Positions 19,185 to 62,391 of a stretch of DNA of 64,000 nucleotides are shown one piece after another. The first letter of the stretch is position 1; the number at the start of each line of letters is the position of its first letter. The DNA comes from Calditrichales bacterium. Lineage in GTDB: Bacteria; Calditrichota; Calditrichia; Calditrichales; J004. The notes under the pieces are model-generated. The model worked only from the letters and a program-made list of their open reading frames with translations. It was not told the origin of the DNA and did not search any database. The position numbers and the translations under genes are program-made. The stretch lies in contig OZ254086.1 in the NCBI GenBank assembly GCA_965267575.1, forward strand, positions 32,001-96,000. Reading direction: 5' to 3'.

Positions 19185-20300
19185 ATGGCAGCTCCACGGA
19201 CTATTGAAGAATTGAAAAACGATCTGAAGGCGATTAACAGAGGAAAGTCTATAAAAATTCGCATTGATTGTAAAGCTGACGGCAAAAATTATTTTTTCCT
19301 GGAGTACAATAAGAATGGTAAAAGGAGTCGTGAATATCTCCGCCTTCAATTTTTTGGCGTACCAAGATATAGGCGTAACGATCAGGAGAATTACAAAAAA
19401 GTAAGAGCAATTCAAGAACGAAAGGAAACCGAACTTCATCAAAATAAATATAATTATAAACTACATAATCAAAAACTGGAGCTCTCATATCTTGATTTTT
19501 TTGAAGAGCTTACGCTTAACCGTAAGAGACCGGATAAATCCTGGCGTAATACCTTATCTCACCTTAAAAAATTTCTAAAAGGAAAAGACATCTCTTTTTC
19601 GCATGTAGATGCCAGATTTTGTGAAAGGTTTAAAGACTACCTCTTGGATAACGTCAACAACAATACAGCGCACACATATTTCGGAAAGATCAAAGCATCT
19701 CTGAACAAAGCAATTGAGAGAGATATAATTTCCGCTAATCCAGCGCAGCGCTTTCATATTAGTAAAAGTGAAGTGAAACGCGAATTTTTAACCGAGGAAG
19801 AATTACAAAAACTTGCTAATACCCCCTGCTTTAGCGAACAAACCAAGAGGGCTTTTTTGTTCGCTTGTTTCACCGGTCTTAGGATCTCGGATATAAGACA
19901 GTTGACCTGGGATAATATTGAAGATGGATATTTATCATTCACTCAAATGAAAACAAAGGGCGTTGAACGCCTAAAGCTGCATACGACTGCTCTAGAAATT
20001 CTGGAATTACAAAAAGCAGACACCTCAACAATCGGCAAACTTTTCAACCTTGTACAGGAGCGATATTCAAATAAACACTTAAAGAGCTGGGCTTTAGAAG
20101 CCGGAATAAAAAAGAAAGTCACCTGGCACGTCGCCCGCCATACGTTTGCTACATTAAATATCGGAGCTGGGACTGATCTTTATACCGTCGCCAAACTATT
20201 GGGACATAAAGATATAAAAGTGACGCAGATTTACGCCAAAATCGTCGATGAACAACGCGACAAAGCAATCGACCACTTGCCCTCCATAGATATTAGTTAA
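19185..20300 (+). CDS. tyrosine recombinase/integrase
   Basis: FACFTGLRISDI, HVARHTFAT, LLGHKDIKVTQIYAK catalytic motifs; arm-binding-like N-terminus. Confidence 0.95.
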   Translation: MAAPRTIEELKNDLKAINRGKSIKIRIDCKADGKNYFFLEYNKNGKRSREYLRLQFFGVPRYRRNDQENYKKVRAIQERKETELHQNKYNYKLHNQKLELSYLDFFEELTLNRKRPDKSWRNTLSHLKKFLKGKDISFSHVDARFCERFKDYLLDNVNNNTAHTYFGKIKASLNKAIERDIISANPAQRFHISKSEVKREFLTEEELQKLANTPCFSEQTKRAFLFACFTGLRISDIRQLTWDNIEDGYLSFTQMKTKGVERLKLHTTALEILELQKADTSTIGKLFNLVQERYSNKHLKSWALEAGIKKKVTWHVARHTFATLNIGAGTDLYTVAKLLGHKDIKVTQIYAKIVDEQRDKAIDHLPSIDIS

Positions 20301-21458: not shown

Positions 21459-24311
21459 CTACTCTCCAACCTTCCCCAGCAACACTCGCACCTTCTCCTG
21501 CAATTCCGCCAGCGCATGATGCTCACATAAAGCCAGGCTTTTCTGTGCATAAAAACGGGCAGAGTCCGGTTGGCTTTGCGCATGGTATACGCCGGCAAGA
21601 TGAAAGTAGGAATACGCCAGCACTACCGCGCTGTCGTCCAGCAGGGCGCGGTTGTGGGCGATGCTCTTTTCCAGCCAGCGCTGCGCTTCCACCCAGTCTT
21701 GCAGTGACTTGTGGGCCGAGCCAAGATTGTTGAACACCATACCCTGCTGCCCAAGGTTGTTGGATTTTTCCGCCAAGGGCAATGCCTGCTTAAGATAGAT
21801 GAGCGCGGAATCCGGCTTCTGTTGCTTGATATAGCCGGCACCGATCTGGTTGAGCAGCGCCAGCCGCAAGCTGTCTGCTTTGCCGGTCGTGGCGTCATTT
21901 AAATGCAGCAGGTAGAATTGGGTTTGGTAGTGCAAGCGTTCTGTTTCGCTCAAAGACTGCCACCAAGCCTGCTGCATATTCTCGCGCACATTTTGGGTAT
22001 TCGGGTGGTCTGGCCCTAAAAATTTTGTAAGGATTGTGAGCGCTTCGTTGTATTTTTCCAGCGCCCCGGCATAATCACCTTTGGCTCGCAGCACCTCCCC
22101 GATGTTGTTCAAACGTATCGCCACCTGGGGATGATTTCTGCCGAAATAGAGCTCGTCGATTGTGAGAGCTTCACCGTATTTTTCCAGCGCCCCGGCATAA
22201 TTGCCTTGTGACTCCAGCACGCCGCCGATGTTGTTCAAGTCCGTAGCGACATTCGGATGCGTTCTGCCGAAATAGAGCTCGTCGATTGTGAGAGCTTCAC
22301 CGTATTTTTCCAGCGCCCCGGCATAATTGCCTTGTGACTCCAGCACGCCGCCGATGTTGTTCAAGTCCGTAGCGACATTCGGATGCGTTCTGCCGAAATA
22401 GAGCTCGTCGATTGTGAGAGCTTCACTGGATTTTTCCAGCGCACCCATATAATCGCCTTGTGAAATAAGCACTCCAGCGATGTTGTTCAAGATTTTTGCA
22501 ATATTGGGATGAGTATCTCCAAAAGCATTTCTCAAGATCGTGAGTGCTTCGTTGTATTTTTCCAGCGCCCCGCCATAATCACCTTTGGCCTCAAGCACGC
22601 CGCCGATGTTGTTTAAGTCTGTAGCCACCCCGGGATGATTATGGCCGAAATAGTTCTTATGGATTGCGAGTGCTTCAGTGAGTTTTTCCAACGCCCCAGA
22701 ATAATCGCCTTTAAAGTGAAGCACAACGGCGATGTTGTTCAAGACTGTCGCGACATTAGGATGTGTTCTGCCAAAAGCATTCTCGCAGATTGTAAGCGCC
22801 TCATTGTATTTTTCCAGCGCCCCGCCATAATCACCTTTGGCTTGCAGCACCTCCCCGATGTTGTTCAAGACTGTCCCGGCATTGGGATGCATTCTGCCAA
22901 AAGCTTGCTCGTAGATTGTCAGCGCTTTGTAGTATTTCTCCAGTGCCCCCGCATAATCGCCTTGTGAATGAAGCACGGCGGCGATGTTGTTCAAGTCCGT
23001 AGCGACATTCGGATGCGTTCTGCCGAAATAGAGCTCGTCGGTTGTGAGAGCTTCACTGTATTTTTCCAGCGCACCCATATAATCGCCTTGTGAAATAAGC
23101 ACTTCAGCGATGTTGTTCAAGATTTTTGAAATATTGGGATGAGTTTCTCCAAAAGCATTACTCAAGATTGTGAGTGCTTCGTTGTATTTTTCCAGCGCCC
23201 CGGAATAATCACCTTTTGCTTTCAGCACCTCCCCAATGTTGTTTAAGTCTGTAGCCGCCCTGGGATGACTACGGCCGAAATAGTTCTTATCGATTGTAAG
23301 TGCTTCAGTGAGTTTTTCCAACGCCCCGGAATAATCGCCTTTAAAGTGAAGCACACCGCCGATGTTGTTCAGACGCATCGCTACGTTGGGATGATTCCTG
23401 CCGTGCTGCGTGGTATCGATTGCCAACGCTAGTTGGTATGTGGCCAACGCCTCATCGTACCTCGCGAGCTCACCCAATGCTCGCCCCAGCATGTTCATGT
23501 GCTCGGTGTTCCCAGGGGCGGCGCTGTCGGCTTTGTTAAAATAATAGGCCGCGCTGTGGTAGCGGGCCTCTGAGAAATAGGTCTGACCCAAATTGAACCA
23601 AATCTCCGGAAGGCGCTTTTCTGCTGCCCGGCCTTCGTGAACCGTGCGCCTGTCTTTGCGCTCCGCTTCTAAGAAGCTCTTCCTGGCTTCAGTCAATTTC
23701 GTATCGCGCACCTCGTAGGTCGCCGCGGCATTGGCATCATCCAAAGCAGCCAGGCCGCGCAGGTTCAGGTCATCGCTGCTGCGCAGACTCTCCTTGTACT
23801 GGTCCACGGCGGTGGTCAATTCGGCCTCGCTCAGCCCCAATCGCGCCGCCGCCTTTTCCATTTCCAGTTGACGGGCAAATTCCTTCTCTTTACTTTCAAT
23901 CGAAGCATTCAATCGCTGGCGGAAGACGTATTCCAGCATACGCGCGCTGCGCAACAGGGCGAGCGAGCCTTTTTGCGCCAGCAGAATGGTGTGTGGCTTC
24001 TGGTAGTCGGCGTTGCGCGGCAAGCGCAGGAAGCCATCCGGTGGCTCGAGCAGCACCATTCCTTCCTTTTGCACCTCCACAAACAGGTCGCTGCCCGCCT
24101 TCAGGAAATACTCTTCCGCCATCTCCTTCGCCATGCGGAATTCGAAATAGCCGTCTGTGTTGCTGAGCTTGCTGTCAAGCCCCGGTATGCGCACGCTGGC
24201 ACCTGCCACGGCGTTGGAGTCGGCATCGAGCACAAAGCCGTGAATGCGCACCTGCGCAGCCAGCGGCATAGCGGCGCACAGGCAAGCGATAAGAAAGAAT
24301 TTGGTTTTCAT
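21459..24311 (-). CDS. secreted protein with a prealbumin/CarboxypepD_reg-like N-terminal domain and a long array of 42-aa TPRs (kinesin-light-chain-like)
   Basis: Signal peptide MKTKFFLIACLCAAMPLAA; VRIHGFVLDADSNAVAGASVRI; repeated HPNVATDLNNIGGVL..GDYAGALEKYNEALTI. Confidence 0.85.
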   Translation of the reverse strand: MKTKFFLIACLCAAMPLAAQVRIHGFVLDADSNAVAGASVRIPGLDSKLSNTDGYFEFRMAKEMAEEYFLKAGSDLFVEVQKEGMVLLEPPDGFLRLPRNADYQKPHTILLAQKGSLALLRSARMLEYVFRQRLNASIESKEKEFARQLEMEKAAARLGLSEAELTTAVDQYKESLRSSDDLNLRGLAALDDANAAATYEVRDTKLTEARKSFLEAERKDRRTVHEGRAAEKRLPEIWFNLGQTYFSEARYHSAAYYFNKADSAAPGNTEHMNMLGRALGELARYDEALATYQLALAIDTTQHGRNHPNVAMRLNNIGGVLHFKGDYSGALEKLTEALTIDKNYFGRSHPRAATDLNNIGEVLKAKGDYSGALEKYNEALTILSNAFGETHPNISKILNNIAEVLISQGDYMGALEKYSEALTTDELYFGRTHPNVATDLNNIAAVLHSQGDYAGALEKYYKALTIYEQAFGRMHPNAGTVLNNIGEVLQAKGDYGGALEKYNEALTICENAFGRTHPNVATVLNNIAVVLHFKGDYSGALEKLTEALAIHKNYFGHNHPGVATDLNNIGGVLEAKGDYGGALEKYNEALTILRNAFGDTHPNIAKILNNIAGVLISQGDYMGALEKSSEALTIDELYFGRTHPNVATDLNNIGGVLESQGNYAGALEKYGEALTIDELYFGRTHPNVATDLNNIGGVLESQGNYAGALEKYGEALTIDELYFGRNHPQVAIRLNNIGEVLRAKGDYAGALEKYNEALTILTKFLGPDHPNTQNVRENMQQAWWQSLSETERLHYQTQFYLLHLNDATTGKADSLRLALLNQIGAGYIKQQKPDSALIYLKQALPLAEKSNNLGQQGMVFNNLGSAHKSLQDWVEAQRWLEKSIAHNRALLDDSAVVLAYSYFHLAGVYHAQSQPDSARFYAQKSLALCEHHALAELQEKVRVLLGKVGE
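22141..22426. repeat. exact 126-bp tandem repeat within the TPR gene
   Basis: 22141-22266 is identical to 22267-22392, followed by a partial third copy. Confidence 0.9.
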
Positions 24312-24385: not shown

Positions 24386-25315
24386 CTACTCGAAAGGAAT
24401 CTTATCTCCGGCAGTAAGTACTTTGTATGCACTAAAACCGGCGTGGCCGTCTTTTAACACGCGCACGTAAACCGAGCTTTCATGTTTGGCTTTCACGATG
24501 AAATTGAAATCACCACTCTCCAGGGTGCGGCCAACGCCAAGCGTATCACCACCAACTTTTTCCAGCACGAAAATATCTGCTTCGGCGACACCATCTCCCT
24601 CTGCATACACGACCCTGCCGTAGTAGCGGGCGCTATCCGGAAGCCAGTTTTTGCTGAGTTTTTCCGGCAAATCCAGGATGAAAGTCGCAATCGCCAGGAT
24701 AGCTGTTACAATTGTCAACCACAGCGCCAGCTTTTTTGCCTTGCTTTTTTCCGCGGCAACCGGTGGCTGATTGATAGTGACATTCCCTCCCGCCTGAATG
24801 ACATTGCCGTGTACGTTTTCTATCTTTTGCTGCAGTGCTTTGACATGTTCAATCGCTTTTTCAGGGGACGATGGTTCTTTTAATTTGCCAAGCCTATCCA
24901 TTACGATTGCAGCGTTGTCCGGGTTCAGTGGGGTAGAATCCCTTCCTGTAGCCAATGCAGAGAGTATTTTCGGGATGTCTTCTTCCGTTGTCGTTCCGGG
25001 GATGGCGTTAATGGCATGAAGCGGAGGCGGCAGGGGCGTATCATCCAACACGTACGGGATGACAGGCTTTTTTAAAGCAAGGGCCGTGTTCCATTCAAAT
25101 TCTACATAGTATGACCTGCTGGCATTTTTTGACCAAAAAAGGACGATCCCATCGCTGGCGAGAATGGCTTCACCGATCGCTTTTGCCCAGCTTTGACTGC
25201 CATAAAGACTTTGCTGGTGGCTCCACACGTTGCAGCCACGCGTTTTTAAAGCCGTCTCGATTTCTGCGACTGTCTTCGAATCGTCATGAGCGTAACTTAG
25301 AAAAACATCCGGCAT
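24386..25315 (-). CDS. TIR domain, transmembrane helix and C-terminal prealbumin-like domain
   Basis: DVFLSYAHDD, FWSKNASRSYYVEFEW (TIR Glu retained); TM LALWLTIVTAILAIATFIL; YYGRVVYAEGDGVAEADI; GGAGG RBS before 25315. Confidence 0.85.
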   Translation of the reverse strand: MPDVFLSYAHDDSKTVAEIETALKTRGCNVWSHQQSLYGSQSWAKAIGEAILASDGIVLFWSKNASRSYYVEFEWNTALALKKPVIPYVLDDTPLPPPLHAINAIPGTTTEEDIPKILSALATGRDSTPLNPDNAAIVMDRLGKLKEPSSPEKAIEHVKALQQKIENVHGNVIQAGGNVTINQPPVAAEKSKAKKLALWLTIVTAILAIATFILDLPEKLSKNWLPDSARYYGRVVYAEGDGVAEADIFVLEKVGGDTLGVGRTLESGDFNFIVKAKHESSVYVRVLKDGHAGFSAYKVLTAGDKIPFE

Positions 25316-25776
25316 TGGATCCTCCAGAGCACCGACCTTCAACCGTAGGGTTCGTACTCCACAGATTTTGCTATTCTCCCTCTTATTCAATTTTACAATT
25401 AAGGAGACGTAATTGTAATGATGTAATCAAAATAACACATATTATCCGAATTATCCCGAATCAAATGCACGCAGTCATAGAGCCGCTTCACCGCGTTTTT
25501 AAACTGGTTTTCTGGTAAAATGCAAAGCAGATCCGCGAATCGCAATCAAATGGCTGAGGTACAAGTCATATTCTGCTTCCATTTTGGGACTAAAAAGTGA
25601 AGCTTTTGACTCGCCTATCGCTGCAATAAATTGTAGTTCACATTGAATTTTTTAAGTAATCTCATCTCTGGTTATTTGTATATTAAAACTCCTATTTTTT
25701 AAATCTAGAGTTTTATTTCAATTTTTAAAAAATTATTGTATAATTATAGTAATAGTACATATTCTCTAACTCTAGC

Positions 25777-27597
25777 ATGACTCAGCCTTTCTACTACAAA
25801 AGCGACGTTCAGATAAATAGGTACGAGAGATTAATTGGAAAATCTGCTCGTGACATTACCAGCTTTCTAAAAACAGAATTCAAAAAAAACAATCAACCGA
25901 TAATATCAAATATACTCTGGTATAAAAATAGTTCTAGCTCACTTCACACTATTGGCATACCAAGACCGCCAACAATCCCGCCATTCAGAGTTAATCATGA
26001 ACAATATCAACAGCATCTAACTAAGATTTGTTGGTTTTTAGGCAAATACTTCACAAGTCAATTTGGTCAAAATCAAATAAAAGAAATCTTTACATATTTT
26101 AAAAATCTGACAAAAAGCGGCACTTCTATATTCAGCATTACTGTTCCTGATTTTACAAATTCTATTATTTCAGAATGGGAGACTTGGCTCTCAATTTCAG
26201 GCGAAAAATTTAATTTGAACTATAAAGAGTTTTTACAGCTAACTAAACGAGAGCCTATAGTTGAGCAAGCTTATCAGCTGGCTAATCTATTGTTAGTATT
26301 AATACCTGAAGTACTAGGACGAACTACAAAGAGAAATATATTTCAACAGGTCTATTTGGATATTACAACTCCCAAAAATCCAAATATTATATACAAAAAC
26401 TTTCATAACAGTGTTCATAACGGATATATTGTTGAACTTAAACCAGAAAATCTGCTTTACGAAAAAAGCCCATTTAAAGATTTGGGCAACATTTTGTCTT
26501 CATTATTAACAATGCCTTTATATCCAGATGAACTCCTCACTATAGTCCAACACTTATTGGATCGCAAAAAGCCAAAACTAGACGAAAAATCAGCCGTTTT
26601 TAAAGACATCCATTTTTCAGGTATCATAAAGCCAATTATTTGGAAAGGACAGTTTCAAGGAATAATCTACGCTTTGACGAGAGGAAGTAATTCTAGTTTT
26701 CAAAGTTTTGAGCCAAAAGATCTTACCCTTTTTAATCTTATCATTAACGATTTTGATTTCTCCTCAACTATAGTTGATGCAAACAAAAAAATATTTGCGT
26801 TTAGTTCACTAACATCCAAGGAACAGGATATTCATCCATATTTGCTGCTTTTAAAAAATATTGAGCTTCTAACCAACGCTAGATCATATATTGCTCTTTT
26901 TAATATAAATGACAGTAAAAAGTGTTTTTTCAGAAGTCTTCCAAGTGAAGCCAAAGCCGAAACAGCCATAGATTATCAAAGTTTTGCAAAGCTCATTGAG
27001 CAATCGTTTTTAAAAAGACCAATTTCCGATTTCGCTCTTAAGCCAAACTATGACGATAGGAAGAATTTATTTGTCGAGATAAAAAAACGAGTGCCTGAAA
27101 ATCTTTGGAAAAAAATCAAAGCTAATAATAATATAGTTTTATTAAAGCTATTTTCTCTTAAAGAGAAAAAACTAAGCTATCTAATATTGTTTTACAAAGA
27201 GCTCCCTGAGAAAGTTATTGCCGGTCACATTCCCAATGAATTTTTATATGCCAAATGCGCGGAGCAGATTTCTAATGATGTAGAATTTGGGATAAATTTG
27301 ATATCCGGAATAGGCTACAATTCGGTTAAATATTTTAAGGCGGAACTTTTTTTAGACAGCCTGGAAAAAGCGTGCGAAAAATTAAAAAAAATGGGCAAAA
27401 AAATTAACACGAGTCAGCTTGAAACGGTGTACGAATCTCCTTTATCAACTCGTAAAACAGTGAAACGTCAAGCAATTGAAAAATTATTAAAAAAAGAGTA
27501 CAAAAACGAGATAATTTACCTTGTAAAGAAGAATCCGAACTCCTGGCCTCTAACAAGGTCTTTGACAGCTTATAAGAATATAAAAAGGACAATATAA
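25777..27597 (+). CDS. hypothetical cytoplasmic protein with a possible GAF-like segment
   Basis: 606-aa AT-rich ORF; IIKPIIWKGQFQGIIYAL...FEPKDLTLFNLI resembles the end of a GAF domain. Confidence 0.6.
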   Translation: MTQPFYYKSDVQINRYERLIGKSARDITSFLKTEFKKNNQPIISNILWYKNSSSSLHTIGIPRPPTIPPFRVNHEQYQQHLTKICWFLGKYFTSQFGQNQIKEIFTYFKNLTKSGTSIFSITVPDFTNSIISEWETWLSISGEKFNLNYKEFLQLTKREPIVEQAYQLANLLLVLIPEVLGRTTKRNIFQQVYLDITTPKNPNIIYKNFHNSVHNGYIVELKPENLLYEKSPFKDLGNILSSLLTMPLYPDELLTIVQHLLDRKKPKLDEKSAVFKDIHFSGIIKPIIWKGQFQGIIYALTRGSNSSFQSFEPKDLTLFNLIINDFDFSSTIVDANKKIFAFSSLTSKEQDIHPYLLLLKNIELLTNARSYIALFNINDSKKCFFRSLPSEAKAETAIDYQSFAKLIEQSFLKRPISDFALKPNYDDRKNLFVEIKKRVPENLWKKIKANNNIVLLKLFSLKEKKLSYLILFYKELPEKVIAGHIPNEFLYAKCAEQISNDVEFGINLISGIGYNSVKYFKAELFLDSLEKACEKLKKMGKKINTSQLETVYESPLSTRKTVKRQAIEKLLKKEYKNEIIYLVKKNPNSWPLTRSLTAYKNIKRTI

Positions 27598-27598
27598 A

Positions 27599-28435
27599 AT
27601 GGATATTTTGGTATCAATTGTAATTTCAGTCATGGCATCTATTTATGCAATGATTTTAGCCGATAAGTATGGATTACACAAAAATAAATATATATTCATT
27701 TCAATCACCGCTGTTATCGTTTTCTTTTTTGCAAATATTATGATTGGGTTTTTGCCGGCCGGTTCTACAAAGCCACAAACAATCGTACCACAAGATTCCA
27801 TACCGCAAGGACCAAAAACTTCAGAATTTTCTTTTAGAACGGAGATGCAATCCAGTCTAAAAGAAAAATTTTCTAAGCTACAATCCAGAGTGAAAAATAT
27901 CCAAACCGATTTCATTACTATCAATTTTACTAGCTTTAAGAGCAAAAATTTTAAGGATCATGAACGAACTAAAATCAGAAAAATTAGAGAAGAGGTACCA
28001 TTGCTAGCAATCGAATACGAGACCATTAATGATGTTGAACTAACCCCTGCATACCAAATATTGAAGTATGATAATTTAGCTTATATAAAAACTATTTTTG
28101 CGGAATTGGAATCTACTATGGATAGCAAAAAAAAGTATATTAGAAAAGCAGCTCTAGATTTAAAAAATGCCTTTAGTATTTTGAAGGATGTTAAGAATTC
28201 ACACGATAGAATTGATAACGATTATATCGTCAGGCTAAAAATATGGATTACCAAAAACGACACAGAAAGCCGATTATACTATTTAGCTTCTTGGCTTAAC
28301 GCATTGAAATATAAAATTTCCGGTAATGAATTGGATTGTGAGAATTGCAAAAAGGACTGGGCAAAAATAGAAGACAAGTATAAACAAGAATTCCCTGCAT
28401 CAGAGCATCCGAGCCTATACCTTTGTATCAAATAA
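27599..28435 (+). CDS. hypothetical membrane-anchored helical protein
   Basis: Two N-terminal hydrophobic helices, then a helical soluble region; starts 1 bp after the upstream stop. Confidence 0.65.
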   Translation: MDILVSIVISVMASIYAMILADKYGLHKNKYIFISITAVIVFFFANIMIGFLPAGSTKPQTIVPQDSIPQGPKTSEFSFRTEMQSSLKEKFSKLQSRVKNIQTDFITINFTSFKSKNFKDHERTKIRKIREEVPLLAIEYETINDVELTPAYQILKYDNLAYIKTIFAELESTMDSKKKYIRKAALDLKNAFSILKDVKNSHDRIDNDYIVRLKIWITKNDTESRLYYLASWLNALKYKISGNELDCENCKKDWAKIEDKYKQEFPASEHPSLYLCIK

Positions 28436-28517
28436 AAGAAAGCCTTTATTGTGATTTTTTGCAACATTTATGTTTCATATTGCTTATATTTCGTCTAACG
28501 CTTAAGGAGGCAACAAA

Positions 28518-28655
28518 ATGTCACGACGAGTAAAAAATGCAATTGCCATTATATTTATTACGATTTTCTTGGTATTTGGTGTTTTTTTTCTTTACGCACA
28601 ATCCTCCCAAATAAGCATTCCCCCACCTTCTGAAATGCCTTTTGATGGATTATAA
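28518..28655 (+). CDS. 45-aa secreted peptide 1 (MSRRVKNAIAIIFITIFLVFGVFFLYAQSSQISIPPPSEMPFDGL)
   Basis: AAGGAGG RBS at 28504-28510; basic N-terminus plus hydrophobic core; motif shared with the next two ORFs; absent from the ORF track. Confidence 0.75.
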   Translation: MSRRVKNAIAIIFITIFLVFGVFFLYAQSSQISIPPPSEMPFDGL

Positions 28656-28754
28656 TTGTTAATTTCAGATTATTTCTTTCAATTTAAAATTTTAGTGACG
28701 AATAAATAACTTTACGAGCAAATTGTATCAACTTGTCAAATGGGCAAGGCCATA

Positions 28755-28940
28755 ATGAGCAAAAAAAAGTTACTTACGATTTCGTTGGGAATAGTCTTGA
28801 TAATTTTATTAAAGTCTGACTTCTTAAATATCTCAAGTCAAAATTCACTTAGGTTACCAGATTGCTCATCTTTGCCTAACATAGATGAAAAAGATATTAA
28901 AATAGCTTCTCCCAGCCAATTGCCACCTTTTGACCTATAA
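28755..28940 (+). CDS. about 61-aa secreted peptide 2 (MSKKKLLTISLGIVLIILL...LPDCSSLP...ASPSQLPPFDL)
   Basis: Signal-peptide-like N-terminus; two xxxSxLP motifs; alternative start at 28740. Confidence 0.65.
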   Translation: MSKKKLLTISLGIVLIILLKSDFLNISSQNSLRLPDCSSLPNIDEKDIKIASPSQLPPFDL

Positions 28941-29072
28941 ATAGATTTGCATTTTAATTTTTTTTGCAACAAATTTGTTGCATCTTAAATAATCAATGAA
29001 ATCAAATTTCTTCTTTACCAACATTTGCGGCCCTTTTCAGGGAAATAAACCTTAGTTAGGTGGGAGAGTTCA

Positions 29073-29234
29073 ATGAACAACATCATTATTCTAGTAGCAA
29101 TGGTAATAGTATTGATGGTCGGATTTAAAGGAGATGAAACGGAACAGGTTGCTCTACCACCATCCTCTGAGTTGCCTACTGTAGATGGAAATTCTTCCCC
29201 ACACTCATCTGACTTGCCAGATGATGGGCTGTAA
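29073..29234 (+). CDS. 53-aa secreted peptide 3 (MNNIIILVAMVIVLMVGFKGDETEQVALPPSSELPTVDGNSSPHSSDLPDDGL)
   Basis: Purine-rich RBS; hydrophobic N-terminus; two PxSSxLP motifs and a terminal DGL as in peptide 1; absent from the ORF track. Confidence 0.7.
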   Translation: MNNIIILVAMVIVLMVGFKGDETEQVALPPSSELPTVDGNSSPHSSDLPDDGL

Positions 29235-29320
29235 AACAACTATGGAATCTTAAGAGCTTTTATTTATTAGTTTAAATTAAATTATATATGTGTACATATA
29301 CGATTTAATTATATACGTCG

Positions 29321-29464
29321 CTACAGCACCCTATAATACTCCTTAATCTTCCGGGCCATGAGCTTGCGCCGTAGCTTCAGGAATTCAGCATAGTTTTCGA
29401 CGGCACGGTTTCCCATGCCACTGGGTATACAATTCATCTAAAAGTTTTCAAGCAGCTCGTCACG
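29321..29464 (-). repeat. diverged copy of the 3' end of the GmrSD-like gene
   Basis: Aligns base by base with 30761-30904, including the stop codon. Confidence 0.85.
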
Positions 29465-29779
29465 AGTGTTGATTCTGAGCTTCAATCCAATATGATTTGA
29501 TAAAAATGAAAAAACACTCATGCCGCTATACCTGCATTATAGTTCCCCGCAGGGAACTTTTATTTACACCAACGTTTCAATGCAACTATGTTCGATTAGC
29601 GCCAGTGCGCATTAACGGGGCTAAATCGTTCCAGCTACTATTATAAAAACCAGGGGCTTTGGTTCCACGCGTGGAACTTTCACTCACATTCAAATCTATG
29701 TTTTAAATAAACAAAAAAGTTACATGCATGTAACTTTGTCATTTAACCAAAAATCCCTCTCAAACTCTTCATCCGTATT

Positions 29780-29919
29780 TCGAGCCACAAAAGCGGTAAC
29801 ACGGAGCCGCCAATAACAACAATCGCGTCTTTTAACTCGCCAAGAATATGGAGTAACTCCACCAACACCGATTTGTTGGCTTCTACTTCGCGGTCTCCGT
29901 AGGCTGATTTGCTGTCCAT
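29780..29919 (-). pseudogene. N-terminal fragment of an AbiEii-like nucleotidyltransferase toxin
   Basis: MDSKSAYGDREVEANKSVLVELLHILGELKDAIVVIGGSV, overlapping the end of the AbiEi fragment; left end approximate. Confidence 0.55.
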
Positions 29920-30209
29920 TCCTGCTTGATTATCCTTTCATATAAAAAATTGGCGGCTTCTTCACCGCGTTCTTTGTTGCCTGCAAGGTCTAAGTACAAC
30001 TGTACACCTGAGACGACCGGAATGATATCGTAGTCGCACGATTGATAGAATACGCCTCTCACATAAGGTTTAAGCAATACAACGTTAGAGCCGCTGTCAA
30101 CGGCCTTTAAATCAAGCGCTTGTTTCTGGTCTTCAATATCGACTTCTATGTAGGCATGCATGCGTTTATATCGCGTATAGGATGCCACGCGAAAGTGGCA
30201 CGTGTGCAA
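29883..30209 (-). pseudogene. C-terminal fragment of an AbiEi-type (type IV TA) antitoxin
   Basis: VDSGSNVVLLKPY..GVFY..PVVSGVQLYLDL..KERGEEAANFL; N-terminal HTH missing. Confidence 0.7.
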
Positions 30210-30289
30210 CTAAGTCGAAAGAATATTAATCCCAATAGGTTTTTATGAAAGAAAGGTTCTCTGCAGAGAACCTTATAGCCCAAAACACT

Positions 30290-30394
30290 TTATAGTACTC
30301 TTTAAATCCTCCAGGTAATGAGCCTGCGCCGCACTCTATGCGGTGGGATACAAGTTCATCGCAACATTTCAAGCAACTCATCACGTTTAATGAT
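30290..30394 (-). repeat. heavily decayed, internally deleted copy of the GmrSD-like 3' end
   Basis: TATAGTACTCTTTAAATCCTCC..GAGCCTGCGCCG..GTGGGATAC..AGTTCATCGCAA..TTCAAGCAACTCATCACGTTT. Confidence 0.6.
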
Positions 30395-30483
30395 TTCAAT
30401 CCCCCTATAATTCGATTAAAAGAGTTCCACGCATGGAACTTTTCTGCGAAATCTTAAATGTTTCAATCTCAGTATGATTCGAT

Positions 30484-30615
30484 ATAATACGCCTTAATCT
30501 TCCGGGCCATTGGCTTACGCCGTAGCTCCAGGAATTCATCATAGTCTTCTACTGCGCGCTTTTCCATGCCGGTGGGGATGTAGTAGTTCATCTCAAAGTT
30601 TTCAAGAAGCTCGTC
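30484..30615 (-). repeat. diverged copy of the GmrSD-like 3' end
   Basis: Aligns with about 30772-30901, with small indels. Confidence 0.85.
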
Positions 30616-30760
30616 AACCCTTTGTCTGATCGAGATAGCTGCGTGGCCTATGGAAATAAAAAGTTACCTGCGGGTAACTTTAGATATTAGTTGCGAAGAA
30701 AAAGCCAAAAGAGCACATTGCAACGTGTTTCTTATAATCTTCATAGACAAATCGTTTTTA

Positions 30761-32557
30761 CTACAACACCCTATAATACTCTTTAATCTTCCGTGCCATA
30801 AGCTTGCGGCGTAGCTCCAGAAATTCATCGTAGTCTTCTACGGCGCGGTTTTCCATGCCGGTGGGGATGCAGTTCATCGCAAAGTTTTCAAGAAGCTCAT
30901 CGCGTTTCGTGATACCGCCGAATTTCAGACCACCGCCGTTGGTTTGATCGAGAATGGCTGTGAAATACTCTGAAGGAGCCTTATTGCCTATTGAGATATT
31001 GATCTCACTTTGCATTATGACATAATTTGCAATTTGGTTATAGCGGCCGCGTGTCAATCCAAACTGTTTTAAATAGGCTTTGGGGAAAATATGATGTACA
31101 TCGCCCTTGTGCGTTATAAGATCGTGAACCGTTATGTCTCGAGACAAGAAGCCTTTATCATTAAGCTTAACCTGGGCAGCAAGATAGGTATTAAAATAGG
31201 GACTGCTGGCAACGGATGAATTGAATTGCTGGGGCAATCCATGGTCCCAGAAAGCGTCGGAAAGCTCGGCACTTTCCACCTGCTCCAGATAGCTTTCAAA
31301 TCCTTTTTCATTAATCCTTCTAATATCATAATCCATGGATGACTCGGGAGACGCCGAATAGCGTCCTGTCAAGATTGAAATAACAAACCATTTACGCACA
31401 TACTTCTCAATGAGTGCCGCATCGTATTTCTTTTCACGGAGATGCAGGTATACGATATAGGCAAAATTCAAGGTCATTTGCGATCTGATCATTGATGCTT
31501 CGACAAAACCGGCGGAACGCAGGATCATGACAAAACGCTTAAAGTGCGTTTCATTCATGAAGTTAAAGATACCATGTTTCAGACGCTCGAATGATTCTTC
31601 AGCAATACTCTCTTCGTAGCCGCGGGTTTCGAAGTTACGGCCGGAAAGCAATGCAACAAGAACTTCCAATTGGCCGCGCTTAAATTCTGATGTAAAAGCC
31701 ACGCGCAGCATATCCGTATAGGAAGGATCGTACAGATCATCGTTCTCGTTTTTAAGCCACGCCATTTTGGGGAAGTATTCTGTTTTGACAAAATCCTTAT
31801 CCACTTCCACCAATTGAGAGTAAAATTCCGGAGCGATAGCCAAATGACAGAAGTAATCGATGCATTTACGCAATGTACTACCGCCATAGATCTCGTTGGC
31901 GGCAATCTTGGACATGGCAAAGTCCGCCTGACTGAGCACAACACCGGCTGAGTTAATCCGGATGAATATCTCGGTAACTGTTTCTATATCCAGATTAGAA
32001 TTAAGCTCAATTAGACCAATGGGATTATTAACAATGCCTTTAAGTGACTCTATACTTTCGTGAATGGCGTCATGATCGTCAATGGCGTTACGTTCACAAT
32101 AGGTGTTAACCATCTTCAGCAGCTTAAAGCCCGGTGTGAAAACGGACGCAATATCCGGTATCCAGGCTTTATCTTTTCGTATGGCCGGGTTAGACACTTC
32201 GAAACGTCTTTGTTGTGGGTGAAAGGCGATACGGATATGGACTCTGCGATAGTCTTTATTGATAACCTGCTGTCCCAGAAGGGTTGCCATTAACGCCGTA
32301 ACTCGCTGCTGTCCATCAATAAGAATTCTTTTGCCCGACGAAACAGTACCATCCTTGAGCTTAACATTGGGATTGCGCCAGGCGATAAGATAGCCTATAG
32401 GGTAGCCCTGGTAGAGTGAATCCATCAGGTCTCTGACTTTGGTGGAGCTCCATACAAAAGGACGCTGTATCTCCGGGATAGCAATCTCATTCGACTGGAC
32501 CCAGGTAAGCAATGTTTGAATAGGATGCTGGTTAACGGAGTATTGTTGGATGACCAT
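30761..32557 (-). CDS. GmrSD-like type IV restriction protein (DUF262 plus C-terminal HNH-like DUF1524)
   Basis: [40 protein letters not shown]. Confidence 0.85.
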
Positions 32558-35718: not shown

Positions 35719-38700
35719 TTACTCCCCTTCTCCCCTATGCGCGGCCCGCGGGTCCCCCGGCGGTGGATCTAAACGGGTTTGATAGGGCTGCCCCGTACGC
35801 ATGGCTTCGGCCATTTCATCATAGATTTCCAAGATGACGCGTTTGGTGCGGTACTCGCCGTGGGCGGCTATGTCTTTGCGTTTGACGATGGGGAAGGTTT
35901 CCATGATGTAGTCGACATCATCCCGTTCGATGCCGTATAGATGAAAATAAGCTGCATCCAATTCGCAGCGTATAAGAAACCGGCGCTCTTCATCCCATAC
36001 AAAGGGGTAGCTACTAAAACCGCATTCTTTCGCCAAAGGCTTTATATCATATGCTGTATAAGACAATTCAATCACTCGGTCACACACCATATTCAGGTGT
36101 TGAACGCTATATGAAGCTGGAGTAATTGCCGGCAACTGTCGTAATAAGTAAAAGTTAATATTTGTACCACCTATTTTTGTCCGCGCCAAATAATCAAAAA
36201 CAAAAGTATTTAGGTTTTGCAATAAACAACACTCCAACTGACTATTCTTATCAGTATTAATTATAAATTCGCTGTCTCCGAGTCCTAATTTTGGGCAGAA
36301 TTTTGCAATAATGCTTCTTTCGTTAGTCGATGGACCAAATCTTCGATAGGATAACAACCAGTCTTTTTCAATTTGTGAGATTTCAGTCTGATTTACCCAG
36401 TAATTGGGTATAGGCAAAAAGCTTTCATCTTGATGCTCTGTTAAAGTAATTAATCTCGTTTCCCCGTTATCAGAATAAGTAGCATACCTATGGTCGAACT
36501 GGTGCATCATCTTCGCTTCATACAGTGGCAGGTATTTCTCATCTCCCTTGCAGAAAACATTGCCGCGCAGCTCCCAGCCATCTTCTTCCAGTTGCTCGCG
36601 GGTGCGGAAAAGGTGCGAATCATTGGACATATCAAACATACGGACAAACTTAATGCCCCATGGATTGCCGTCCGGGTCGTCTTCTTTGATCAGCACGGGG
36701 ACACGGCGGTAGATGCTTTTGGTCAGCTCAGCGTCGCGCTTGCTGCGGAAAATAGGACAGGTTTTGGTGTTGGGGTTGAGCAGTTCGATATCTTCGGCCG
36801 TCAGGGTAAAATGCTTCTCCGAATCACGCAGCTCTTCCGTGCCCTGGGCAAAAAAGACAAAATCGGCACCCTGCCGGGCCGGACGTTTTATGCCGCTCAT
36901 GGTCAGCAGACAAAACTTATAGCTGCGGTGGACCCCCTGAAAAATAGCCCTGCGGTTTTCAAAATCATACAGACTGTGCAGCATCGCCTTTTCCATCAGG
37001 TCCTGGAAGAAAAACTTGGTGGTGTCGTCGGTGGCAATACCGGAAGGCACAATACAGCCCACACGCCCTGTCGGATTGATGATGGTTCGCTTGGCTTCGG
37101 CAAACAGGGCATAGGTATTTACATCGCCCCGGCCCGTTAAAGCATACAGACCGCTGTCACGCACAAAATGGCTTTCTCCTTCAGCCTTACGCCGGTCTTC
37201 CAGGAATGCCCTGTACAGCGTCGGGTCTTCCGTCTGCAGTTCTGCAATCATCTCGCGGCGACGTGCGGCATTAGGCGCATCGGCAATATCCGGGCGGCGC
37301 GTGGCAAACCACTCTTTCTCCTGCAGTTTGATGCGCTCCCATGGCGGGTTGCCCAGCACCACATCAAAACCACCGATCCAGCCGGTCTCCTTATTGTCCG
37401 CCTGCTCGCCCGTGCCCGGCACATGGAACACATCGGGGAATTCGATATGCCAGTGGAAAAAACTGTATTGGTCGGCCAGGCGGTTTATCTCTTCATCCAG
37501 CCAGTCTGGTATAACTGCCGGCCGTTCCTGCACACGACGAAACACTTCATGGGTAATGGGATAGTCAAACTGCTTTGATTTCTTCCACACAAAAGCCGCG
37601 CACCAGGTATCGGCAATCAGCTTATTCAGAATGTAATCATCGGATGAGCGATGTTCGTTAAACAGAAAGCTTTTACGCGACACCGCTTCAAAGGAGTCAT
37701 CAGGCAGTGTATCGATATCCTGCACCGTGTCGGACAGGTTGCCGTACCGGAACCACAGGCCGGGTTCATGAAACAGACTTTTCTGACCCCTTTCGCGTTC
37801 CTGTTTGTTGCGTTTTTTATACTCGCTGCAATAGGCTCTGTTATCGCCTTCAATGGGTTTAAAGGCATCATCGGGAATACCCTTATTGATCAGGGCCGGT
37901 GTTGTGCCCAGCAGGCTGTTACCACACAGAATACGGTGATCCAGAAAGGAGAGCGGTTTGCCCGGTTCCAGCGCTTCCATCCACAGCCCCACCTTGCACA
38001 GCTCCACCGACATTTCATTGATATCTACGCCGTAGATACAGTGGCCGATGATATCACGCAGCGCTTTGCGGTTCTCTTCCGGCGCAGCTTCTTCATCGCC
38101 TGTGCGGGCAAAGGCCAGCTTACGGGCCATGCGGTGTGCCGCAGCAATTAAAAAATGTCCGCTGCCACAGGCGGGATCGCATATTTTTAAATCCAGGATG
38201 GCCTTTTCAGGATCGGCGTTTTTCAGTGCTTCATCCAGCACCGGGTCCAGCGCGGAATTCAGCAATTCACGGATCAGGCTGGTAGGCGTGTAATAGGAGC
38301 CGGTGGTCTTGCGCTCATGCCCGCCGGCCGTCTTAAGCTCAAAGCTGCCGCCTTCCGTGCTCAGTTCCGGGTGCAGCTCCAAAAGCGATTCATAGATGCT
38401 GCCCAATTCTTCCGACCCGGTGTTTTTAAAGTCCACCGGCCGCCGCACCCCACCATCTTGGATAAAGGCCAGCGCTCGGATGGCATCCAGGAAATCATGG
38501 TTGCGGATATCGGATTGCTCCAGGTGGGGAATGGTGGCATCGGAAAACAGGAAACTGCCCAGGGCCGGCAAAGCCAGTTCAGGACATCCGTCCGGATCAC
38601 TGAGCTTTTGCATCACCAGCTTCAGGCCGCGATAGAGATCGCTATTACGGGTGCCGCGCTGCCGTTGCGCCAGCCGCCGGAAACGCATGGTGGAATAGTA

Positions 38701-39663
38701 ACGGGTGTAGATTTCTTTGGCGCCATCGGGTGCTTCCGGGGTGAGCAGCAGGTTACGGTCTTCGGCAGTAAACAGGAAGATCAGCCGGTAGACCAGGCGC
38801 AGCAACTGGCGATAATAATCCTGCTTGTCCAGCGCACCGCTGCGAAGTTTTTCGCGTAAGCCATTGTTACCGGGATAGTTGAGAAAACCGCTGCCCAGCG
38901 CCGTGATCGTCTCTTCCACACCTTTGCGCAACTGGTCCAGCGCTCGCGTTCCCTGCTCCTGCGCCGATTGCGACCATCGTTCCAGCCAGCACTCTTCCGG
39001 CTTGTCCGCTTCCACCCGTGATTGATGACCTAATATCCAGAGCAGCACGAAGTCGGCATAGACTTCGCCTTCCATCATCGCTTCCAGGTCGAACTCCACA
39101 TAGGCCTGGCGCGTCAGGCTGACATTATCACGCAGGATTCGCAGCTTAAGTCCGTTGGATAGAAAACCCCACAAATGGTCATCGGAACGATTAAGGAATT
39201 CCTGCAGCAGGCTGTGCGGGCTTGCACTTGCGGCTCCGGCAACACCTTTTGTACGCCGGTCCAGGTCGATCTTAAAGCCCAGCAGGTGAATCGGCACATG
39301 GCGCCAGGTATGCGAGATGCTGTATTCCTTGTTCTCCAGTACAAAACGTTTGGAAGGCTGCAGTCGGCCATAGCCAAGCTCACTGAAGATCTGCAGCAGC
39401 CAGCGTTCGCGGGTCAGCGTAGTGCCTAAATCTTCATGCGGCAGTTTGTTGCGTTGTGTGCTGAACGATTGCCAGGCGCCCAGCAGGCGGTTCCAGGCGC
39501 GGTTGATCGCTTCGTTAACTTTTTCATTGGGCAGCAGGTGAAAGCTTTGCGGATTCAGACCATCCACATCTTTGGCGCTGACCAGACGCTGCAACAGGTC
39601 CGGCGGCAAGATGGCACCTTCCACCTGTATTGTTGTAAAGAGATCGCGTTTCTTAGTTTGCAT
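35719..39663 (-). CDS. Eco57I/DrmMI-like adenine methyltransferase (type IIG-like)
   Basis: RKTTGSYYTP, DPACGSGHFL, FDVVLGNPPW; C-terminal target-recognition region. Confidence 0.9.
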   Translation of the reverse strand: MQTKKRDLFTTIQVEGAILPPDLLQRLVSAKDVDGLNPQSFHLLPNEKVNEAINRAWNRLLGAWQSFSTQRNKLPHEDLGTTLTRERWLLQIFSELGYGRLQPSKRFVLENKEYSISHTWRHVPIHLLGFKIDLDRRTKGVAGAASASPHSLLQEFLNRSDDHLWGFLSNGLKLRILRDNVSLTRQAYVEFDLEAMMEGEVYADFVLLWILGHQSRVEADKPEECWLERWSQSAQEQGTRALDQLRKGVEETITALGSGFLNYPGNNGLREKLRSGALDKQDYYRQLLRLVYRLIFLFTAEDRNLLLTPEAPDGAKEIYTRYYSTMRFRRLAQRQRGTRNSDLYRGLKLVMQKLSDPDGCPELALPALGSFLFSDATIPHLEQSDIRNHDFLDAIRALAFIQDGGVRRPVDFKNTGSEELGSIYESLLELHPELSTEGGSFELKTAGGHERKTTGSYYTPTSLIRELLNSALDPVLDEALKNADPEKAILDLKICDPACGSGHFLIAAAHRMARKLAFARTGDEEAAPEENRKALRDIIGHCIYGVDINEMSVELCKVGLWMEALEPGKPLSFLDHRILCGNSLLGTTPALINKGIPDDAFKPIEGDNRAYCSEYKKRNKQERERGQKSLFHEPGLWFRYGNLSDTVQDIDTLPDDSFEAVSRKSFLFNEHRSSDDYILNKLIADTWCAAFVWKKSKQFDYPITHEVFRRVQERPAVIPDWLDEEINRLADQYSFFHWHIEFPDVFHVPGTGEQADNKETGWIGGFDVVLGNPPWERIKLQEKEWFATRRPDIADAPNAARRREMIAELQTEDPTLYRAFLEDRRKAEGESHFVRDSGLYALTGRGDVNTYALFAEAKRTIINPTGRVGCIVPSGIATDDTTKFFFQDLMEKAMLHSLYDFENRRAIFQGVHRSYKFCLLTMSGIKRPARQGADFVFFAQGTEELRDSEKHFTLTAEDIELLNPNTKTCPIFRSKRDAELTKSIYRRVPVLIKEDDPDGNPWGIKFVRMFDMSNDSHLFRTREQLEEDGWELRGNVFCKGDEKYLPLYEAKMMHQFDHRYATYSDNGETRLITLTEHQDESFLPIPNYWVNQTEISQIEKDWLLSYRRFGPSTNERSIIAKFCPKLGLGDSEFIINTDKNSQLECCLLQNLNTFVFDYLARTKIGGTNINFYLLRQLPAITPASYSVQHLNMVCDRVIELSYTAYDIKPLAKECGFSSYPFVWDEERRFLIRCELDAAYFHLYGIERDDVDYIMETFPIVKRKDIAAHGEYRTKRVILEIYDEMAEAMRTGQPYQTRLDPPPGDPRAAHRGEGE

Positions 39664-39675
39664 AATCTGCTTCTT

Positions 39676-61869: not shown

Positions 61870-62391
61870 TTACTGTAAGAGGGCTAACAACAGTGTGAGC
61901 AAAAACAGGAAGAAATAGAAAAACATGATCTGGATAAGGCGTTGAGCCACACGAGGAAGCTTATTAGAAGCCTCTTTCTTTAGTTTTTTATCAGCTTCAA
62001 TACGATAGGGATCATCATAGCACCAAATATCACTCAAGCCCTCTATTTGAAAACGGATATAATCAGCACGGTTCCAACCGCTTCGGATATGCAACCCATA
62101 TTCACGAAGCATGAACATAACATAGGCACTAAGGATTAAACCGATCGCAGAAGTGATAATAACTAATGGCGGCTGTTCAACCTGGAAACCGACCTTTCCG
62201 TTTTCGGCTACTGAAAGATGCTTTGCCATAAAGCCCAACAATGCTCCAAGAAGAGAATAGAAAAATGAAGCCATGGTCCACATCTTGTCTTTTATTTTGG
62301 CCGCATCATCTGTAAACCATTTCCATAGATCCAGGTACTGATTGGTATCACTGTTCAGGCTGTGCTGGGAAACAAGGTTTTTAGCTGACAT
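61870..62391 (-). CDS. hypothetical membrane protein (about 3 TM helices)
   Basis: 173-aa ORF with three hydrophobic segments. Confidence 0.6.
   Translation of the reverse strand: MSAKNLVSQHSLNSDTNQYLDLWKWFTDDAAKIKDKMWTMASFFYSLLGALLGFMAKHLSVAENGKVGFQVEQPPLVIITSAIGLILSAYVMFMLREYGLHIRSGWNRADYIRFQIEGLSDIWCYDDPYRIEADKKLKKEASNKLPRVAQRLIQIMFFYFFLFLLTLLLALLQ

Follow-up and report, generated by a model that had tools for sequence, protein, structure and literature searches.

A putative mobile envelope module of three small exported-type peptides with a common C-terminal motif and a two-pass membrane protein in Calditrichota

We analysed a 64,000-nucleotide (nt) stretch of DNA from a Calditrichales bacterium (positions 32,001 to 96,000 of the forward strand of contig OZ254086.1, assembly GCA_965267575.1), hereafter referred to as the window, in which three tandem open reading frames (ORFs) of 45 to 61 amino acids (aa), designated o1, o2 and o3, follow the gene for a 278-aa membrane protein. 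Judging from comparison with a second genome of the same phylum, the three peptide genes are real and are inherited jointly with the membrane-protein gene, and the C-terminal 12 residues of the peptides are conserved at the protein level. The reading that we favour, with a probability of about 0.55, is that of a mobile four-gene envelope module, in which the peptide tails would be displayed or released in the periplasm and their free C-terminus would be read, probably by the co-inherited two-pass membrane protein. A first-pass annotation of the window had proposed a peptide-signalling cassette, with precursors of RiPPs (peptides made by the ribosome and modified after translation) as an alternative. 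Its central observation, that is, real small genes with protein-level conservation, an export-type N-terminus and a C-terminal peptide, is borne out, whereas signalling, the partnership with an adjacent 606-aa protein and the RiPP alternative are not.

The three tandem ORFs and the perfect AAGGAGG ribosome-binding site reported in front of the first one are found at the coordinates listed in Table 1. In the whole genome, 130 of the 391 AAGGAGG sites have an ATG 4–10 nt downstream, and 104 of these 130 open ORFs of at least 40 aa; thus, the start of o1 is very probably real. The Shine-Dalgarno (SD)-like sequences of o2 and o3 are weaker than that of o1; a 4-mer SD core is found upstream of 38% of 2232 long ORFs in this genome. 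Each peptide has an uncharged stretch of 14–20 residues followed by a Pro/Ser-rich tail with a net charge of -2 to -7, in agreement with the signal-peptide-like N-terminus and the Pro/Ser/acidic tail described initially. A public predicted-protein collection contains o1 and o3; o2 is absent from it with either start. The three ORFs share one reading frame, and the in-frame stops between them are all TAA; we take this as a coincidence in AT-rich DNA, because start and SD site are separate for every one of them. Comparisons of o1–o3 with the 278-aa and 606-aa proteins gave no significant similarity; the highest score, for o3 and the 278-aa protein (z = 2.4), was also reached in 13 of 500 shuffles. 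The ESM Atlas returned nothing usable for the 278-aa protein or o3.

The strict motif P..S.[LM]P occurs four times in the approximately 160 residues of o1–o3 and eight times in the six frames of the window, compared to 547 matches, or 0.058 per 1000 positions, in the six frames of the 4.73-Mb genome. When extended by D[GL], the motif is found in the genome at this locus only. Five copies had been counted at first; four of these are strict, whereas the fifth (ASPSQLP) is shifted by one register from the strict pattern. The similarity between the tails of o1 and o3 is high (z = 6.6), and none of 2000 composition-preserving shuffles reached it. No direct DNA repeat connecting the coding parts of o1–o3 was found, and the codons differ between the copies (TCT, TCA or AGC for the conserved Ser; TTA, CTA or CTG for the final Leu). 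Taken by itself, the window makes a suggestive case for related peptides.

The comparison with a second locus strengthens this case. We searched 86 genomes of the phylum with a profile of the three peptides and obtained a single non-self match spanning the whole model (G016:C22, E = 3.2e-4); other matches covered mainly the hydrophobic part. The matching genome, G016, belongs to the same order as the genome of the window and to another family. It encodes a 307-aa homologue of the 278-aa protein (BLASTP E = 6e-23, 28% identity over 194 residues), followed by three same-strand ORFs of 54, 65 and 56 aa, designated q1, q2 and q3, all with strong SD sites and with hydrophobic stretches of 16–19 residues. 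The C-termini of q1–q3 fit xPxPSx(L/V)PPE(G/N)L. Thus, inspection of homologous loci for downstream peptides, which had been suggested as a check, has a positive outcome, since a homologue of the 278-aa protein was found at just one more locus, and there too three motif-ended peptides lie downstream. The number of motif copies per peptide is 1, 2 and 2 in the window and in G016 alike, the internal copies in peptides 2 and 3 being looser than the C-terminal ones. Across the two genomes, o1 and q1 (z = 7.5) and o2 and q2 (z = 11.5) are reciprocal best partners, and o3 scores z = 10.6 against q2 and z = 7.3 against q3. The pairing of o1 with q1 and of o2 with q2 indicates that the triplication predates the split of the two cassettes. 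We also considered, and rejected, the possibility that o1–o3 are fragments of a single broken gene: none of them lacks a start, an SD site or a hydrophobic N-terminus of its own, and in G016 spacers of 164 nt (q1–q2) and 444 nt (q2–q3) lie between the peptide genes.

Two features of the spacers may be recorded here. A near-consensus promoter (TTGACA, 18 nt, TATAAT) is located at L015:10565-10594 (L015 being the G016 locus), in the 444-nt spacer ahead of q3, and suggests that q3 is transcribed separately from its own promoter. In the window, a palindrome, TGCAACAAATTTGTTGCA, lies at 28460-28477 and an imperfect copy of it at 28965-28982, each behind a T-run and about 25 nt past the stop codon of the 278-aa gene and of o2, respectively. 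Both palindromes fold no better than shuffled sequences (z = +1.28 and -1.39), and no counterpart was seen in the one G016 spacer that was aligned (q2–q3).

When the six peptides are aligned, the N-terminal part is variable and hydrophobic, and all invariant columns fall within the C-terminal 12-mer, the sole strongly conserved part. Its consensus is x-P-x-P-S-x-(L/M/V)-P-x-(D/E)-(G/N)-L, ending at the stop codon in every case; Ser5, Pro8 and Leu12 are invariant, and the terminal Leu is always preceded by (D/E/F)(G/N/D). The six 12-mers, compared without gaps, are identical at 6.27 of 12 positions on average (52%), and at 6.0 of 12 between the genomes, compared to 0.94 of 12 (8%, standard deviation 0.25) in shuffled tails; the observed identity was not attained in any of 5000 shuffles. 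The invariant Ser is encoded by TCT, AGC, AGT, TCG or TCC, and the last Leu by TTA, CTA, CTG or CTT. As an independent probe, the three G016 C-termini were compared to the C-terminal 12-mers of 86,108 open frames of at least 30 aa in the genome of the window: a score of 7 of 12 is attained by two frames only, namely o1 and o2, and o3 belongs to a group of seven frames that score 6 of 12. The excess of C-terminal identity over shuffles, the recovery of o1–o3 by the independent probe and the varied codons of the invariant residues together indicate selection on the protein level at the motif. The proposal of protein-level conservation in the absence of a DNA repeat is therefore upheld, both by the varied codons in the window and by the G016 trio with the same C-terminal motif.

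The gene inherited together with the peptides encodes a two-pass membrane protein. In the 278-aa protein, transmembrane (TM)-like windows span residues 3–21 and 32–50, with the basic loop DKYGLHKNKY (+2) in between; the 307-aa protein of G016 has an equal two-pass layout, with an inter-TM loop of about +5 (counted by eye). Because a basic loop lies between the TM segments in both homologues, the loop is suggested to be inside and the C-terminal domain outside, and the approximately 225-aa helical domain probably faces the periplasm. This domain contains an aligned pair of Cys residues (C247 and C276 in the 278-aa protein, C277 and C306 in the 307-aa protein). The 278-aa protein has no matches in Pfam, PADLOC, PHROG, NCBIfam or PDB profiles, and Foldseek found nothing in the PDB at E <= 1e-3. 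The family was not detected in viral contigs, and tblastn searches against plasmids and against phages were without match. It should be noted that the tails of both membrane proteins hold a Pro/Ser stretch faintly resembling the motif (..PASEHPSLYLC.., window 28380-28435, and ..PPGSNPSLKVC.., L015:9810-9858); this could be due to chance or could represent a built-in pseudo-ligand.

Four genes, the membrane protein and the three peptides, are common to both loci. The module is rare: among 401 genomes, a sample that extends into other phyla, the membrane-protein profile matched two, and the three peptides follow in both; the six-peptide profile reaches the C-terminal end of its model only in these two genomes, and a scan of 39 loci found the motif at the two module loci only. 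The module matched no Pfam, PADLOC, PHROG or NCBIfam family, and in open-access papers and bioRxiv, supplements aside, no description of the motif or of a comparable module was found. When the 606-aa protein, the 278-aa protein and the three-peptide profile were used as queries in word-indexed protein searches, nothing beyond the proteins of the window itself came back; these blanks reflect sensitivity rather than absence, because the collection contains q1–q3 and the search missed them. Word-based protein searches thus overlook peptides of this kind. The GC content of the cassette is 0.31 compared to 0.496 for the genome in the window, and 0.36–0.41 compared to approximately 0.47 in G016. The stretch is present only in four sequencing runs of one sample, which is probably the source, and unseen in six other runs with the same species label. 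These observations are those of a mobile module.

Immediately upstream of the 278-aa gene, the window carries a gene for a 606-aa protein, which the first-pass annotation had treated as a partner on a par with the 278-aa protein. This part of the proposal fails: the 606-aa family has no match at E <= 0.1 in G016, which is 99% complete, so the gene is outside the conserved core, and the co-inherited gene is that of the membrane protein. The 606-aa gene probably travels with the module in the window as an accessory, because it lies one base from the 278-aa gene and has the same GC content. The protein has no TM segment (maximal Kyte-Doolittle hydropathy over 19 residues, 1.25) and is accordingly predicted to be cytoplasmic. 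Pfam, PADLOC, PHROG and NCBIfam contain no family that it matches. From 1.84 billion representatives, HMMER recovered seven rows at E <= 1e-3, namely the protein itself, two proteins of 602–603 aa (36% identity), three of 768–784 aa (24–27%) and a repeat protein, P0008, which has fn3 and lectin domains and a best stretch of 56 residues and was put aside as spurious. The 768–784-aa relatives carry an additional C-terminal HATPase_c domain (E from 8e-6 to 0.019), and the profile homology with them spans residues 13–481 of the 606-aa protein, i.e., a module of about 470 aa. A sensor histidine kinase was considered and rejected: HisKA and HATPase_c are absent, there is no Pfam match, and the homology stops at residue 481. 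A weak GAF match was obtained against 5w10_A (E = 0.0053).

By its distribution, the 606-aa protein defines a very rare family. It was not found in 40 relatives, and locus scans gave no case in metagenome contigs, in genome contigs (close alignment) or in viral contigs. The long-form alignment yielded one locus, in a metagenome-assembled genome of Acidobacteriota (L002:7935-12341), where a 175-aa ORF and a 482-aa AAA+ ATPase come after the long form. Micro-ORFs and the motif are absent from that locus, and that genome has no match to the membrane-protein family.

The surroundings of the two modules differ. In the window, the module lies in an island that starts with a helix-turn-helix gene and an integrase (19185-20300) and also includes a TPR/TIR gene pair, a GmrSD-like gene, a DISARM/Dpd-like block and a DruE-like helicase. 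In G016, the gene upstream of the module encodes a PGA_cap protein, and the rest of the neighbourhood consists of hybrid histidine kinases, a Fer4 protein, DUF362 and PEBP; this locus is, on its gene content, outside any defence island. The integrative element inferred earlier is plausible in the window, given the integrase, the low GC content and stumps of gene ends, whereas the G016 locus lies outside defence islands. The right edge of the cassette abuts a displaced 3'-end copy of the GmrSD-like gene (Table 1), where GC climbs from approximately 0.31 to approximately 0.40; this copy belongs to repeat family D1 (29321-29473, 30472-30624 and 30761-30913). In total, the 3' end of the GmrSD-like gene (30761-32557, minus strand) is present in four diverged direct copies, including one at about 30284-30395, which bracket small cargo such as a 108-aa ORF (29883-30209); six copies of a palindromic hairpin, AGTTCCnnGCnnGGAACTTT, are scattered among them at 29541-30682. 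The arrangement looks like an insertion hot spot that leaves stumps.

Several other parts of the window are mentioned for completeness. The adjoining TPR and TIR genes may form a two-gene defence module; a functional link of the peptide cassette to this pair was rejected, since GC content and strand differ and the pair is absent from G016. On the minus strand, 35719-47698 holds a composite defence locus with a DrmMI-like type IIG methylase, a DpdE/DrmD-like SNF2 helicase and a 1731-aa DruE-like helicase (MZB, DUF559). At higher coordinates, also on the minus strand, a 3146-aa ORF (52358-61798) contains TcA_TcB_BD, ABC_toxin_N, neuraminidase-like and VRP1 domains of the TcA type in a Pfam scan, and an 8xMP membrane protein is encoded beside it (61870-62391).

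Table 1. Coordinates of the module genes in the window and in G016 (L015) and of neighbouring features in the window
Feature	Coordinates	Strand	Length	Remarks
SD site AAGGAGG of o1	28504-28510	+		7 nt upstream of the o1 ATG
Peptide o1	28518-28655	+	45 aa	n-region charge +3; 20-residue hydrophobic stretch; single full C-terminal motif copy IPPPSEMPFDGL
Peptide o2	28755-28940 (alternative ATG 28740)	+	61 aa (or 66 aa)	n-region MSKKK; 14-residue hydrophobic stretch; internal motif LPDCSSLPNIDE; C-terminal motif IASPSQLPPFDL
Peptide o3	29073-29234	+	53 aa	15-residue hydrophobic stretch; internal motif LPPSSELPTVDG; C-terminal motif SPHSSDLPDDGL
Two-pass membrane protein gene	27599-28435	+	278 aa	core partner of the module; predicted helical C-terminal domain of ~225 aa
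Peptide q1	L015:9886-10050		54 aa	SD GGAAGGAG; C-terminus IPNPSPLPPENL
Peptide q2	L015:10215-10412		65 aa	SD AGGAAGG; C-terminus IPFPSKVPPEGL; looser internal copy
Peptide q3	L015:10857-11027		56 aa	SD GGAGG; C-terminus CPQPSKLPPEGL; looser internal copy
606-aa protein gene	25777-27597	+	606 aa	ends one base ahead of the 278-aa gene; same GC as that gene
Displaced 3'-end copy of GmrSD-like gene	29321-29473	-		right edge of low-GC cassette; translated fragment matches C-terminus of the 598-aa GmrSD_N protein
TPR_12/TPR_10 protein gene	21459-24311	-	950 aa	signal-peptide-like hydrophobic start (by eye); DNA ~50% GC
TIR-domain protein gene	24386-25390	-	334 aa	hydrophobic segment; adjoins the TPR gene

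Under the reading that we favour, the peptides would insert into the membrane through their hydrophobic N-terminus, which would stay on the cytoplasmic side, the C-terminus being outside; the tails would stay tethered or be clipped off in the periplasm; and the free C-terminal motif would serve as a docking epitope for a partner, the likeliest candidate being the extracytoplasmic domain of the co-inherited membrane protein. The tails and the approximately 225-aa domain would then probably meet in the periplasm. In agreement with an N-in/C-out orientation, the n-region is more positive than the following 12 residues in four of the six peptides. The module of the window would have gained the cytoplasmic, sensor-like 606-aa protein and would have come as low-GC cargo into the recombination hot spot of the defence island. 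Candidate downstream roles are envelope sensing, exclusion of invaders and signalling.

A number of observations weigh against this reading. Just two loci are known, and the G016 locus was fished out using the peptides as bait. Within the window alone, o1 and o2 (z = 2.3, reached by 52 of 2000 shuffles) and o2 and o3 (z = 2.4, 49 of 2000) are weakly related. The topology is ambiguous in two of the six peptides: the charge is reversed in q2 (+4 after the hydrophobic stretch versus +3 before it) and tied in q3. Hydrophobic stretches of 14–20 residues are compatible with cleaved and anchored peptides alike. Neither membrane protein has a recognisable domain, and with a cytoplasmic loop of 10–27 residues the exit route of a signal is hard to see. 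The AlphaFold2 models are of low confidence (mean predicted local distance difference test score, pLDDT, 57.9 for the all-helical 278-aa protein and 46.6 for the 606-aa protein). Finally, none of the sequencing runs holding the stretch is an RNA run.

A bolder reading is a self-contained peptide-sensing system in a bacterium with two membranes, in which three distinct pro-peptides would be exported and trimmed to 12-residue ligands ending in P-S-x-L-P-x-(D/E)-G-L, and the membrane protein, travelling with them on mobile DNA, would be a new two-pass receptor for the free C-terminus that can be plugged into varied cytoplasmic partners, here a GAF-like sensor protein in a defence island; we regard it as doubtful. 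If true, it would represent peptide communication or an envelope alarm unrelated to RRNPP, Agr or Com, and the first in the Fibrobacterota-Chlorobiota-Bacteroidota (FCB) group.

The alternative closest to the first-pass proposal is a cell-to-cell pheromone: exported and cut pro-peptides, whose C-terminal (and internal) peptide would leave the cell and be sensed by other cells via the membrane protein and, in the window, the 606-aa protein. The Phr-like layout, the export-type N-terminus, the conservation of the extreme C-terminus, the second internal copy in two of three peptides, the mobility of the module and the sharing of the first ~470 residues of the 606-aa protein with HATPase_c-bearing proteins would all fit. 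For Rap-Phr systems, PMC11343458 documents propeptides that contain more than one copy of the pheromone. At the same time, nothing shows cell-to-cell signalling. In line with the initial statement that no RRNPP receptor is nearby, neither an RRNPP-type nor another known receptor was found in either locus in Pfam and NCBIfam scans, the 606-aa protein is missing from G016, and the short loop of the membrane protein comes without a recognisable output domain. A released peptide would also need to cross the outer membrane, and no exporter is encoded in either locus. Pheromone systems usually diverge in the active C-terminal end, whereas this end is near-identical in three paralogues and two genomes. 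Overall, we consider a pheromone unlikely.

Exported antagonistic peptides, similar to bacteriocins or microcins, with the two-pass membrane protein as immunity or maturation factor, are quite unlikely. A row of genes for small exported peptides beside that of a small membrane protein, all on mobile DNA of low GC, is what one would expect of such a system, and in siderophore-microcins otherwise different peptides share a conserved C-terminal region. However, none of the six peptides has a double-glycine leader, and neither locus encodes an ATP-binding cassette (ABC) exporter, including the peptidase-containing type (PCAT), or a modifying enzyme. The tails are net negative in four of six peptides (-1 to -7) and slightly positive in two (+1 and +2), with 12–25% Pro and none cationic-amphipathic, and the conserved part is a short linear motif with no folded toxic core.

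Very unlikely, in our view, are membrane-damaging effectors or peptides similar to type I toxins that serve island defence or addiction. Single hydrophobic helices of 14–20 residues in tandem paralogues would suit this role, and the module of the window sits amid TIR, GmrSD, DISARM/Dpd-like and Druantia-like genes. What is under selection, however, is the hydrophilic C-terminal motif rather than the helix, contrary to expectation for toxins of this type, and the G016 module has no such setting. There was no PADLOC match, and Rfam matched no family, hence no antisense or antitoxin RNA, in 25000-31000 (E <= 1), although novel antisense RNAs would be outside Rfam.

RiPP precursors, for which a row of precursor-sized ORFs and a repeated motif with invariant Ser and Pro would speak, are highly improbable, because no known modifying-enzyme family was found at either locus (Pfam for both, NCBIfam), the only shared large gene has no known domain, the N-termini are of the hydrophobic export type, and a variable N-terminus with a conserved C-terminus is the reverse of the leader/core pattern. 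Chance open frames in AT-rich spacer DNA, which easily encodes hydrophobic stretches and in which one shared frame with TAA stops would be no surprise, are essentially excluded by the synteny with G016, the SD sites before q1–q3, the shuffle test, the five codons of the invariant Ser, and the distance between the loci, which is incompatible with recent transfer (28% identity of the membrane proteins and no conserved block in the alignment of the o2–o3 and q2–q3 spacers).

Small exported proteins are largely missing from annotations, and few have a partner and a recognisable functional epitope. The fixed trio, its 12-residue C-terminal motif and the co-inherited membrane protein together lead to a testable ligand-and-partner hypothesis. 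If the tails are signals, peptide signalling through a C-terminal epitope would be extended to a lineage and an envelope type that lack documented cases; if they are structural or defensive, the four genes would still constitute a new mobile envelope module.

Among known systems, the Phr, PapR, NprX and AimP peptides of RRNPP(A) systems in Bacillota and phages resemble the peptides described here in ORF size (40–65 aa), export-type N-terminus, C-terminal functional peptide and location on mobile DNA. For Phr propeptides, a C-terminal active peptide plus extra internal copies is established (PMC11343458). All six peptides of the two modules combine a hydrophobic N-terminus with a conserved 12-mer at the C-terminus, and they may be cleaved by signal peptidase or maturation proteases. 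Conversely, no gene for a cytoplasmic TPR receptor is adjacent here, each module has three peptide genes instead of one, the gene inherited with them codes for a two-pass membrane protein outside any known family, the 12-residue motif is near-identical among the paralogues, and the host, which has an outer membrane, probably belongs to the FCB group. Membership in RRNPP was rejected: the 606-aa and 278-aa proteins belong to no Pfam family, the 950-aa TPR protein of the window is encoded on the other strand in DNA of ~50% GC, and there is no TPR protein among eight ORFs scanned around the G016 module.

A second likeness is to two periplasmic microproteins of Pseudomonas aeruginosa, MucE and DimA. 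According to PMC12780092, they end in a free WVF or WTF, which docks into the PDZ domain of the protease AlgW, so that periplasmic readout of a free C-terminal epitope is an established design. Like them, the peptides of the module are small and of the exported type, and under the favoured reading they would act through the final residues of a free C-terminus read in the periplasm. The motif here is Pro-rich followed by (D/E)(G/N)L, not aromatic, the peptides form a fixed set of three that is accompanied by its own membrane protein, and there is no sequence relationship. Membership in this type was likewise rejected, since the aromatic C-terminal tripeptide (YxF, WVF or WTF, as given in PMC12780092) is replaced by an end in Leu in all six peptides. 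At the two loci, to which this search was confined, there is no gene for a PDZ protease or an anti-sigma factor.

Two further comparisons concern the membrane. MgrB and SafA are single-pass micro-proteins of 45–65 aa with a short periplasmic tail that modulate sensor kinases, and the peptides of the window are close to a protein related to HATPase_c carriers. That protein, the 606-aa neighbour, differs in being cytoplasmic, without HisKA or HATPase_c, and absent from the second locus, and the peptides show no sequence similarity to MgrB or SafA. In phage spanins, the peptides of the module would correspond to Rz1, from which they differ in having no lipobox, in being three in number and in having no phage lysis context or PHROG match. 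The overall design is nonetheless alike: spanins combine the inner-membrane protein Rz, which has a helical periplasmic domain, with the small Pro-rich periplasmic Rz1, and the module pairs Pro-rich tails with a membrane protein whose predicted helical domain, including its conserved Cys residues, probably faces the same compartment.

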